Part shown: piece after piece, positions 1,248 through 3,865 of the stretch
Position numbering within the stretch: position 1 is the first letter of the stretch
Layout of the letters: every line of letters begins with the position of its first letter
DNA from: a virus
Taxonomy: Duplodnaviria > Heunggongvirae > Uroviricota > Caudoviricetes
IMG/VR virus record: IMGVR_UViG_2565956731_000002
Length of the DNA stretch: 21,775 bases
Strand: one strand, 5' to 3'
Made by a program: the position numbers and the translations under genes
The notes under the pieces: generated by a model
Database searches by the model: none
Seen by the model: the letters and a program-made list of their open reading frames with translations, nothing else
What the model was told of the DNA's origin: nothing

Positions 1248-1319
1248 TGTAGTGGCACACTGAATTTGGCCACCTGAACAGAGGTGATATGCTCACCTCA
1301 GAACAACACAGGTGCTCCA

Positions 1320-1622
1320 ATGAAAAAAAGAAATTTCAGCGCAGAGTTTAAACGCGAATCCGCTCAACTGGTTGTTGACCAGAACTACACGGTGGCAGAT
1401 GCCGCCAAAGCTATGGATATCGGCCTTTCCACAATGACAAGATGGGTCAAACAACTGCGTGATGAGCGTCAGGGCAAAACACCAAAAGCCTCTCCGATAA
1501 CACCAGAACAAATCGAAATACGTGAGCTGAGGAAAAAGCTACAACGCATTGAAATGGAGAATGAAATATTAAAAAAGGCTACCGCGCTCTTGATGTCAGA
1601 CTCCCTGAACAGTTCTCGATAA
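1320..1622 (+). CDS. IS911 OrfA (helix-turn-helix transposase component)
   Basis: Translation [49 protein letters not shown]... matches IS911 OrfA as remembered; ATG at 1320. Confidence 0.9.
1571..1577 (+). promoter_or_regulatory. A-AAA-AAG slippery heptamer for the programmed -1 ribosomal frameshift that makes OrfAB in IS911/IS3-family elements
   Basis: AAAAAAG at 1571..1577 near the end of orfA; the downstream OrfB reading frame (1649..) is in the -1 frame relative to orfA. Confidence 0.7.
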
Positions 1623-1648
1623 TCGGGAAACTCAGAGCGCATTATCCT

Positions 1649-2174
1649 GTGGTCACACTCTGCCATGTGTTCGGGGTTCATCGCAGCAGCTACAGATACT
1701 GGAAAAACCGTCCTGAAAAACCAGACGGCAGACGGGCTGTATTACGCAGTCAGGTACTTGAGTTGCATAACATCAGGTTCTGCCGGGGCAAGAAGCATCG
1801 CCACAATGGCAACCCTGAGAGGCTTCAGAATGGGGCGCTGGCTTGCCGGCAGGCTCATGAAAGAACTGGGACTGGTCAGTTGCCAGCAGCCTGCGCACCG
1901 TTATAAACGAGGTGGTCGTGAACATGTCACTATCCCGAATCACCTTGGGCGGCAGTTCGCAGTGACAGAGCCAAATCAGGTATGGTGCGGCGACGTGACG
2001 TACATCTGGACGGGGAAACGTTGGGCATACCTTGCCGTTGTTCTCGACCTGTTTGCAAGGAAACCGGTAGGTTGGGCAATGTCGTTCTCTCCGGACAGCA
2101 GACTGACCATCAAAGCGCTGAAAATGGCCTAGGAAATCCGCAGTAAACCAGCCGGGGTAATGTTCCACAGCGAT
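1649..2174 (+). pseudogene. IS911 orfB 5' part (DDE transposase catalytic region), frameshifted at about 1765..1772 and cut by the nested IS at 2174/2175
   Basis: Two overlapping ORFs, 1649..1906 (frame 2) and 1665..2132 (frame 0), together read as one IS3-family OrfB (…[39 protein letters not shown] / [17 protein letters not shown]…WCGDVTYIW…). The frame switch is consistent with a small deletion of about 4 nt. Confidence 0.8.
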
Positions 2175-3548
2175 AGTAATAATGCCGGTATCAGTTTTTA
2201 TCATCACTCTGTTTGCTGTTTAACCAGACTGGTGTGATTACTGATGCAGTGAAGACCTTCCCGCATCCTGACTCACACAGCGATCGACCCTTTGTGTCCT
2301 GCCCTGGACCTGTCGGTTGCCGGAAGCGCCTTCATGCGAGGCGTCTCCTCACCGATGCGCGTGACTCAAGAAGGGCCTGACGGTTTGTCTCGTTACTGTC
2401 CTGTCCGGGTTATCTGTCTGGAGATTCAACTCTGTTTCCTCACAGGAGCTCTGTTATGGCAGGTAAAGTTACGGAAACCGCTGTTGTGGGTGGCGTGGAT
2501 ACACATAAAGATCTGCACGTTGCCGCTGTCGTAGATCAGAACAATAAAGTTCTGGGGACCCAGTTTTTCTCCACAATACGGCAAGGTTACCGGCAGATGC
2601 TGGCATGGATGACTTCGTTTGGGGCATTAAAGCGAATTGGTGTTGAGTGTACTGGCACCTATGGATCAGGTCTGCTTCGCTATTTACAGAATGCCGGGTT
2701 AGACGTTCTTGAGGTGACTGCGCCAGATCGGATGGAGCGACGCAAACGGGGTAAAAGTGACACGATTGATGCTGAATGTGCCGCTCACGCCGCATTCTCC
2801 CGAATAAGAACCGTCACACCCAAAACGCGCAATGGCATGATTGAGTCTCTGCGGGTATTAAAAACTTGCCGAAAAACAGCAATATCAGCCCGCAGAGTCG
2901 CTCTCCAGATTATCCATTCCAATATTATCTCTGCCCCGGATGAATTACGTGAACAGCTCAGAAATATGACGCGCATGCAGCTCATCAGGACTCTGGGATC
3001 CTGGCGGCCTGATGCCAGTGAATACCGCAATGTTACCAACGTTTATCGTATTTCATTAAAGTCCCTTGCCCGACGCTATCTCGAGTTACATGACGAAATC
3101 GCTGATTTGGATGTCATGATTGCGGCAATTGTCGATGAGCTGGCGCCTGAACTGATTAAACGTAATGCTATTGGATACGAAAGCGCTTCGCAGTTGCTGA
3201 TCACGGCAGGAGACAATCCCCAACGATTAAGATCAGAATCAGGTTTTGCGGCACTGTGTGGTGTCAGCCCTGTTCCCGTATCTTCAGGAAAAACGAATCG
3301 TTATCGACTTAACCGGGGTGGAGATCGTGCTGCAAATAGTGCACTTCACATCATTGCCATCGGACGTTTGCGAACTGACGATAAAACGAAGGAATATGTC
3401 GCCAGACGAGTAGCGGAAGGGCATACAAAAATGGAAGCAATACGCTGCCTGAAGCGCTATATCTCACGCGAAGTTTATACATTACTGCGTAATCAAAACA
3501 GGCAGCTCAACAGCATCCCGATAACGGCTTGACTCTTAGAAGGGCGTC
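2175..3548 (+). mobile_element. IS110-family insertion sequence nested inside IS911 orfB (about 1374 bp, no terminal inverted repeats; 281-bp non-coding left end, 16-bp right end)
   Basis: IS911 OrfB coding sequence stops at ...TTCCACAGCGAT (2174) and resumes in phase at CAGGGCAGCCACTAT (3549), i.e. ...MFHSD|QGSHY..., so the boundaries are base-precise. The element encodes a DEDD-type transposase. Confidence 0.75.
2456..3532 (+). CDS. IS110-family (DEDD / RuvC-like) transposase-recombinase, 358 aa
   Basis: N-terminus MAGKVTETAVVGGVDTHKDLHVAAVVD... is the typical IS110/IS116/IS902 family start; ATG preceded by AGGAG. Confidence 0.85.
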   Translation: MAGKVTETAVVGGVDTHKDLHVAAVVDQNNKVLGTQFFSTIRQGYRQMLAWMTSFGALKRIGVECTGTYGSGLLRYLQNAGLDVLEVTAPDRMERRKRGKSDTIDAECAAHAAFSRIRTVTPKTRNGMIESLRVLKTCRKTAISARRVALQIIHSNIISAPDELREQLRNMTRMQLIRTLGSWRPDASEYRNVTNVYRISLKSLARRYLELHDEIADLDVMIAAIVDELAPELIKRNAIGYESASQLLITAGDNPQRLRSESGFAALCGVSPVPVSSGKTNRYRLNRGGDRAANSALHIIAIGRLRTDDKTKEYVARRVAEGHTKMEAIRCLKRYISREVYTLLRNQNRQLNSIPITA

Positions 3549-3857
3549 CAGGGCAGCCACTATACAAGCAGGCAGTTCCGGCAGTTACTGTGGCGTTACC
3601 AGATCAAACAGAGTCTGAGTCGACGAGGAAATTGCTGGGATAACAGCCCGATGGAGCGCTTCTTCAGGAGTCTGAAAAACGAGTGGATACCGGTGACGGG
3701 TTACATGAACTTCAGCGATGCTGCCCATGAAATAACGGACTATATCGTTGGGTATTACAACGCGCTCAGGCCGCACGAATATAACGGTGGGTTGCCACCA
3801 AATGAATCGGAAAACCGATACTGGAAAAACTCTAAAGCGGTGGCCAGTTTTTGTTGA
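3549..3857 (+). pseudogene. IS911 orfB 3' part (C-terminal end of the transposase)
   Basis: ...[94 protein letters not shown]... continues the OrfB frame to a stop at 3855..3857, just inside the right inverted repeat. Confidence 0.8.
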
Positions 3858-3865
3858 CCACTACA

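Follow-up and report, generated by a model that had tools for sequence, protein, structure and literature searches.

IS-associated loss of the early region in a defective lambdoid prophage at icd of Escherichia coli

We analysed a 21,775-nucleotide stretch of tailed-phage DNA (Caudoviricetes; IMG/VR record IMGVR_UViG_2565956731_000002; hereafter the window) in which one insertion sequence (IS) occupies the place of the whole early region of a lambdoid prophage. The element is an IS911-like relative in the IS3 family with a second IS, ISEc21, nested within it; the composite is 2,618 bp long (1248-3865) and joins a 5'-truncated xis gene (break at 1247/1248) to replication gene O (break at 3865/3866). 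We consider it very probable (about 0.95) that the early region was lost in an IS-associated deletion and that both the IS and the prophage are now dead. As the specific route, deletion mediated by the transposase of the IS is cautiously favoured.

The window belongs to a defective lambdoid prophage of E. coli that is integrated at icd, and forms its left part; the late region is similar to those of phage 21 and DLP12. Over the first 5.6 kb it matches the chromosomes of E. coli FDAARGOS_536 and several other strains at 100% identity, and the entire arrangement is present in about 80 of the 5,426 complete E. coli genomes (~1.5%).

Junctions of the element

The features that define the two junctions are as follows.

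1248-3865, plus strand: IS911-like IS3-family element with nested ISEc21 and no target duplication; ends TGTAGTGG...CCACTACA; without ISEc21 it aligns end to end with intact 1,249-bp copies.
1108-1247, minus strand: 3' remnant of xisE, codons 37-81 of 81; intact xisE is 246 nt in loci L004 and L010, and identity stops exactly at 1247.
3866-4789, plus strand: pseudogene of replication gene O, frameshifted; Pfam Phage_rep_O; junction set against loci L005 and L012.

The element begins at 1248 with TGTAGTGGCAC... (in a longer reading, TGTAGTGGCACAC...) and ends at 3865 with ...GACCACTACA (longer, ...GTTGACCACTACA). These boundaries were set by three independent comparisons, namely with intact xisE, with intact O and with intact 1,249-bp copies of the same IS. 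The intact xisE of two other icd prophages (L004 and L010) is identical to the window through 1247 and then runs GACAAAATAA..., while the intact O of L005 and L012 reads ...GGAATTATGGC followed by AAACACTGCTGAG (junction ATGGC/AAACACT), with identity to the window beginning exactly at 3866. Intact copies of the IS terminate at the same bases as the window element, and the feature annotated as 'IS911B' in K-12 begins at the base equivalent to 1248. The original prediction, made from the window sequence alone, had placed the left IS end just upstream of the integrase start within a probable xis remnant and the right end against codon 3 of O, and both placements are borne out. The left end falls within xis, 121 nt upstream of where int starts, and O has lost its ribosome-binding site and its first 5 nt (the ATG and two further bases), with codon 3 onward left.

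The three bases next to the IS are GTG at the left end and AAA at the right end, and the element therefore lacks a 3-bp target duplication, as had also been noted before. The missing duplication is meaningful, since two copies of the same isoform that did insert simply are flanked by perfect duplications of 3 bp, AAT in a capsid gene (L008) and TTC in ugd (L009). Simple insertion is thus excluded for the window copy. End-targeted insertion was also considered, since the O start (TGGCAAACACTG) resembles the left end of the IS (TGGCACACTG), but the junction is off the expected position and this candidate was rejected.

Three of the five other sampled copies of the isoform also lack a target duplication (L002/L016, L003 and L015). 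The L002/L016 copy, in an int-IS-dam arrangement near mdtA, lies between a truncated prophage integrase and a truncated methyltransferase gene. The window is thus not the only case of a prophage early region being deleted at this IS.

The missing early region

In a functional lambdoid prophage the immunity region, N and the recombination genes lie between xis and O; in the window only the IS separates the two. To define the missing interval, we used strain SK1402, which carries a near-complete sister prophage at icd that is 98.3-99.4% identical to the window from 3866 through O, P, autotransporter, hydrolase, nin region, quuD, porin and essD. Between the xis start and the O ATG this prophage has 7.4 kb with 14 annotated genes, a length that for the window ancestor is taken from a relative. 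These genes are DUF4222, ASCH and TraR/DksA genes, three small open reading frames (ORFs), exo, bet, gam and kil, followed by a 337-aa ORF, an S24 repressor, a cro-like regulator and a YdaT-domain gene in the cII position. None of the 14 was found in the window or adjoining it in the annotated record, and no intact early region stands in either place. The claim that everything between xis and O is absent therefore holds, and alignment to a related prophage at the same attachment site, which had been proposed as a check, did define the interval.

Identity and inactivation of the IS911-like element

Apart from the nested ISEc21, the element has the following parts.

1248-1274, plus strand: left terminal inverted repeat (IRL); against the reverse complement of 3839-3865, 8 of 8 terminal bases and a GGCCACC block match.
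1320-1622, plus strand: orfA, intact, 100 aa; Pfam HTH_Tnp_1, E = 6e-14; identical to the intact copy in L003.
1571-1577, plus strand: A AAA AAG slippery heptamer for the -1 frameshift from orfA to orfB; from sequence reading, with 'programmed frameshift' annotated on intact copies by the Prokaryotic Genome Annotation Pipeline (PGAP).
1775-1776, plus strand: site of the 5-bp (GCCAT) deletion in orfB; alignment with L003.
2130-2132, plus strand: TGG to TAG nonsense codon in the orfB frame; alignment with L002 and L003.
3549-3857, plus strand: 3' part of orfB, encoding the C-terminal half of the DDE domain; Pfam rve_3 / rve_2 and alignment.
3839-3865, plus strand: right terminal inverted repeat (IRR); alignment with intact copies.

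Membership in the IS3 family is supported by the 5'-TG...CA-3' termini (TGTAGTGG at 1248 and CCACTACA ending at 3865, matching at all eight terminal bases) and by a helix-turn-helix orfA that overlaps a DDE-type orfB in the -1 frame at the slippery heptamer (Pfam HTH_Tnp_1, rve and rve_3). The 3-bp duplication typical of the family is absent from the window copy and present on the L008 and L009 copies. The element had been labelled IS911. Along the first 329 nt it matches the left fragment of K-12 IS911B at 97.6% identity; over the full length of 1,249 nt, identity is 90.9% to a copy in L013 that PGAP names 'IS911 family'. By ISfinder convention, isoforms share roughly 95% nucleotide identity, and the 90.9%, measured against the L013 copy and not against the ISfinder reference, falls below this value. 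On these identities we classify the element as an IS911-like relative and not IS911 proper; the family placement of the earlier label stands and the name does not.

Without ISEc21 the element is 1,244 bp long and differs from an intact 1,249-bp copy in only two ways. A 5-bp deletion (GCCAT) lies in orfB between 1775 and 1776, and a G to A change at 2131 turns the orfB codon TGG at 2130-2132 into TAG. The third lesion is the 1,374-bp ISEc21 at 2175-3548. The original prediction had described a doubly inactivated IS with a small frameshift near 1768: inactivation and frameshift are correct, the lesions number three with the TAG codon, and the frameshift is the deletion at 1775/1776. orfA, the AAAAAAG slippery site and both terminal repeats are unchanged. 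With no uninterrupted orfAB frame left, the IS cannot make OrfAB, while its ends stay intact. The description of the IS as immobile thus holds for autonomous movement, there being no transposase, with the limit that both terminal repeats are intact.

The identical GCCAT deletion (IS positions 529-533) occurs at another locus, that of the int-IS-dam copy, in strain 2022H048 (L002 6001-7244), where the truncated integrase and methyltransferase genes belong to a different prophage. In the sibling strain 2022H047 (L016 2148-3396) the IS at this locus is intact and the 6-kb region is otherwise identical. Among the 5,426 genomes the deletion is restricted to the lineage of the window and that of 2022H048; its site has only 1 nt of microhomology and overlaps a CCATGG palindrome. 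Shared descent and gene conversion were considered as sources of the L002 deletion; given that L002 keeps its own single-nucleotide polymorphisms on both sides and the sibling copy is intact, shared descent with the window deletion is unlikely. An independent event, a very short conversion tract or an assembly error are possible sources of the recurrence. That the site is a specific mutational hotspot or a target of directed inactivation in this IS lineage, and not the place of a random lesion, seems doubtful to us. One further record (H376), which breaks exactly at the deletion point, proved to be a scrambled patch of IS21, IS3 and IS110 sequences and was uninformative.

The nested ISEc21

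2175-3548, plus strand: ISEc21 (IS110 family), apparently intact, splitting the HSD/QG codons of orfB; 1,374 bp, no duplication; 'ISEc21 family' in PGAP.
2456-3532, plus strand: ISEc21 transposase gene, 358 aa; Pfam DEDD_Tnp_IS110 and Transposase_20.
2175-2455, plus strand: upstream non-coding region of ISEc21, guide (seekRNA / bridge RNA); CACAGCGATC and CTGCCCTG present; guide role from PMC11187229.

An IS110-family insertion inside orfB had been proposed, and is confirmed. ISEc21 has been described as a 1,374-bp element with a 358-aa transposase, which requires an RNA from its upstream non-coding region and inserts without duplication (Siddiquee et al. 2024, PMC11187229); it naturally targets certain transposase genes of the IS3 family, at a conserved stretch that surrounds the codon for the second D, with ISCfr6, ISEc92 and ISEc93 as host examples (PMC11187229). 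We found that the window copy has all of these hallmarks: the DEDD transposase, the length, the upstream non-coding region, and neither inverted repeats nor a target duplication. It is inserted between GAT (D) and CAG in the ...HSD/QG... stretch of orfB, that is, within the codons surrounding the second D of a DDE transposase of the IS3 family. Two segments of the non-coding region match the two target strands: CACAGCGATC (2276-2285) equals the top strand across the insertion point, and CTGCCCTG (2299-2306) equals the reverse complement of the right flank. An Rfam search of 1100-4000 at E <= 1 gave no match, Rfam having no curated family for the ISEc21 guide RNA. Many other E. coli records also have related IS110-family copies inside genes of the IS3 family. 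The nested insertion thus lies at the programmed target of ISEc21, is not random damage, and is fully explained by published work. Excision of this ISEc21 copy may still be possible, as it looks intact and has the correct flanks.

How the early region may have been lost

The favoured course of events would start with a single insertion of the IS911-like element, either in xis or at the start of O. With its transposase still active, one IS end would then have attacked a second site ~7.4 kb away on the same molecule, in an intramolecular 'adjacent' deletion. Such an event would have taken out everything from the 5' part of xis to the first 5 nt of O (recombination genes and kil, N/cIII region, repressor, cro-like and cII-position genes, and all early promoters), and would have left one IS copy between the non-matching flanks GTG and AAA. 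The prophage, by then non-inducible and non-excisable, would have been kept as a fixed carrier of the inverse autotransporter, porin and sitABCD genes, and the IS itself would later have decayed by the 5-bp deletion, the orfB nonsense codon and the guide-programmed hit of ISEc21 at the second catalytic D codon.

Adjacent deletion is preferred because it is parsimonious, with one insertion and not two, and because some carrier genomes have no other copy of the IS: in clade genomes H2, H10 and H13 the whole 5.6-kb query has a single match place. The two junctions occur together, the left in 81 genomes and the right in 80; the one genome with only the left junction counted falls below 80% coverage at the right. 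Adjacent deletion is documented for the IS3 family, where it accounts for all 14 IS150 deletion events analysed in a long-term evolution experiment (PMC11708052).

Several points weigh against this reading. In sequence, an adjacent deletion leaves just what RecA-dependent recombination between two copies in the same orientation would leave, and alignment with intact copies revealed no mosaic polymorphism within the IS and hence no signal that separates the two routes. An ancestor with the IS at just one of the two sites, xis or O, was not found in the complete E. coli genomes, GTDB species representatives and metagenome contigs. In addition, the int and xis of SK1402 are a different allele (63% identity for int, no match for xis), which is why the content and length of the DNA deleted from the actual ancestor are drawn from a relative; a phage collection yielded only one relative of the int/xis module, at 93% identity and not useful as a parent. 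The original prediction had suggested an adjacent deletion rather than a simple insertion. The second half of this statement is settled, and the first is plausible and shares its outcome with two-copy recombination.

Recombination between two copies, the less probable but still credible alternative, would start from two independent IS insertions of like orientation, in xis and at codon 2 of O, and homologous recombination would then have deleted the interval and left one hybrid copy, its left flank from one insertion and its right flank from the other. It yields exactly the observed structure without any transposase at the deletion step, and missing duplications are known to result from recombination between IS copies (PMC11708052); the three duplication-free copies among the five others sampled, one of them at a prophage rearrangement junction, are also in keeping with it. 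However, it requires two insertions within 7.4 kb plus a recombination event, in a clade in which several genomes have no other copy of the IS, and the IS has no mosaic pattern inside it. Also, neither reciprocal junction (IRR, GTG and the 5' part of xis; the 5' part of O, AAA and IRL) was present in the collections in which ancestors were sought (5,426 complete E. coli genomes, GTDB species representatives and metagenome contigs).

It is also conceivable, and in our view improbable, that the IS fused two tandem icd elements, an e14-like one (defence cargo, intE and xisE) and a phage-21-like lambdoid one (O and P), by either IS mechanism and with a loss much greater than 7 kb. In its favour, icd is used by both kinds of element, the int/xis module is of e14/intE type and is separated from icd by cargo genes, and in the sister prophage, which shares the right arm, the integrase directly beside icd is another one, at 63% identity. 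But module exchange is routine among lambdoid phages, and the window intE/xisE allele occurs on complete lambdoid-type prophages with other early regions (L004 and L010), which makes a tandem array unnecessary; nor was any tandem array seen in the loci inspected. An IS-independent break with capture of the IS during repair, a duplication-free model proposed for IS5 and IS481 (PMC11708052), also predicts missing duplications, but the same study explains its IS3-family (IS150) cases by ordinary adjacent deletion and no positive evidence for capture exists at the window locus, so that we regard it as very improbable.

Decay of the remaining prophage genes

1-1127, minus strand: intE-type integrase pseudogene; Pfam Arm-DNA-bind_1 and Phage_integrase on two ORF halves; 'frameshifted' in PGAP.
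4786-5487, plus strand: replication gene P, ORF intact; Pfam Phage_lambda_P, E = 2e-61.
3854-3883, plus strand: candidate hybrid outward promoter; -35 TTGACC in IRR, 18-nt spacer, extended -10 TG-n-GATATT in the O flank.

Of the genes that a functional lambdoid prophage keeps intact, int is frameshifted, xis is truncated, O is both truncated and frameshifted, and ~19 kb with morphogenesis genes are absent. The reading frame of int is shifted by the loss of 1 nt at 609/610, as seen against L004 and the intact intE of L010, and that of O by the loss of 1 nt in the T-run at 4538-4540; neither of these deletions, nor the TAG codon in orfB, was part of the original prediction. The second large deletion relative to SK1402 lies between essD/lysozyme and the middle of tail gene J and removes lysis, packaging, head and tail genes and iss. 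Its junction is near 15683, with no IS there, and a 197-nt fragment of the lysozyme gene is fused to the middle of J (window about 15486-15700).

The candidate promoter at the right IS end matches the consensus at 9 of 12 positions, and chance alone would give about 0.8 such sites in the region; this hybrid site, which would read into the remains of O and into P, is only a lead for residual transcription into P.

Some clade members have an additional IS30 or IS4. In FDAARGOS_536 an IS4 (L001 35852-37276) interrupts J and is missing from the window (18202-18214), and another clade subgroup has an extra IS30 inside the first 5.6 kb. IS traffic in this prophage remnant is ongoing.

With no repressor, early promoters, N, xis, int or translatable O, the prophage should be unable to be induced, to replicate or to excise, and its cargo would be vertically fixed. 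This would explain the permanent fixation of the icd prophage in ~1.5% of complete E. coli genomes, where it would stably carry the genes for a candidate adhesin of inverse-autotransporter type, a porin and the Sit transporter of iron and manganese.

Locus and cargo

In the annotated record the region lies directly downstream of icd. Starting from icd, the order is an AAA-ATPase/HNH-endonuclease pair, the frameshifted intE, a short 'excisionase', IS3-family fragments around the ISEc21 transposase gene, a frameshifted 'replication protein', replication protein P, the inverse autotransporter, a hydrolase, ybcN-ninE-ybcO-rusA-ylcG-quuD, a porin and essD, followed in the far part by the lysozyme fragment fused to the J fragment, tail-fibre pieces and sitD. 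The locus is a prophage-derived, Sit-carrying 'PAI-icd' island, of the kind described for extraintestinal E. coli (PMC7545054). The 'PAI-icd' of UM146 (29 kb according to a review) was considered as a named example of the window variant and rejected, since it carries a near-complete prophage.

The AAA-family ATPase and HNH endonuclease genes are located just left of the window (L001 15358-17732), between icd and intE, in the slot where e14 carries lit, and probably form a defence cargo cassette. Other intE prophages have a gene for a TPR protein (L004) or for hypothetical proteins (L010) in the same slot. The intimin/invasin-like inverse-autotransporter gene (window 5737-10008) encodes 1,423 aa, versus 1,302 aa in FDAARGOS_536 and SK1402. 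The difference corresponds to one extra repeat block of ~120 aa (about 7040-7760), and the repeat number varies among strains. Tandem Repeats Finder called no repeat in this gene, its unit being too long and too diverged.

Comparison with known systems

With IS911 the window element shares a length of 1,249-1,250 bp, the TG...CA termini, orfA, the A AAA AAG -1 frameshift into a DDE orfB and the 3-bp duplications on simple insertion. It differs in that the termini of its isoform are TGTAG, versus TGAAG in the 'IS911 family' copy, and in that PGAP labels it only as 'IS3 family'; the window copy in addition has no duplication and has three inactivating lesions. The nested element agrees with published ISEc21 (PMC11187229) in size, transposase length, non-coding region, duplication-free insertion at the second-D codons and flank-matching guide segments. 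As hosts the paper gives, by way of example, ISCfr6, ISEc92 and ISEc93, and the host in the window is IS911-like; there is no difference of substance. It is therefore a clean natural example of published ISEc21 behaviour, the RNA-guided homing of an IS into a catalytic codon of IS3-family transposases. The IS150 adjacent deletions (PMC11708052) likewise have the IS at the deletion junction and no duplication; there the prior insertion was observed in earlier samples, whereas no precursor is available here.

Taken as a whole, the locus represents ordinary prophage decay, with an IS-associated grounding of the prophage and a textbook ISEc21 insertion, and this is known biology and not a new system. 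The value of the analysis lies mainly in the annotation and explanation of the locus, and current understanding is unchanged. The cryptic prophages of K-12 likewise decay by IS insertion and deletion. The window variant shares the icd site, the intE-type integrase and a far-end sitABCD with cryptic lambdoid prophages (DLP12, e14, Rac and Qin) and the 'PAI-icd' of extraintestinal pathogenic E. coli, and its ybcN-ninE-ybcO-rusA-ylcG-quuD-porin-essD module resembles that of DLP12. What sets it apart is the loss of the whole immunity region and of ~19 kb of late genes, whereas the versions in SK1402 and UM146 are near complete.

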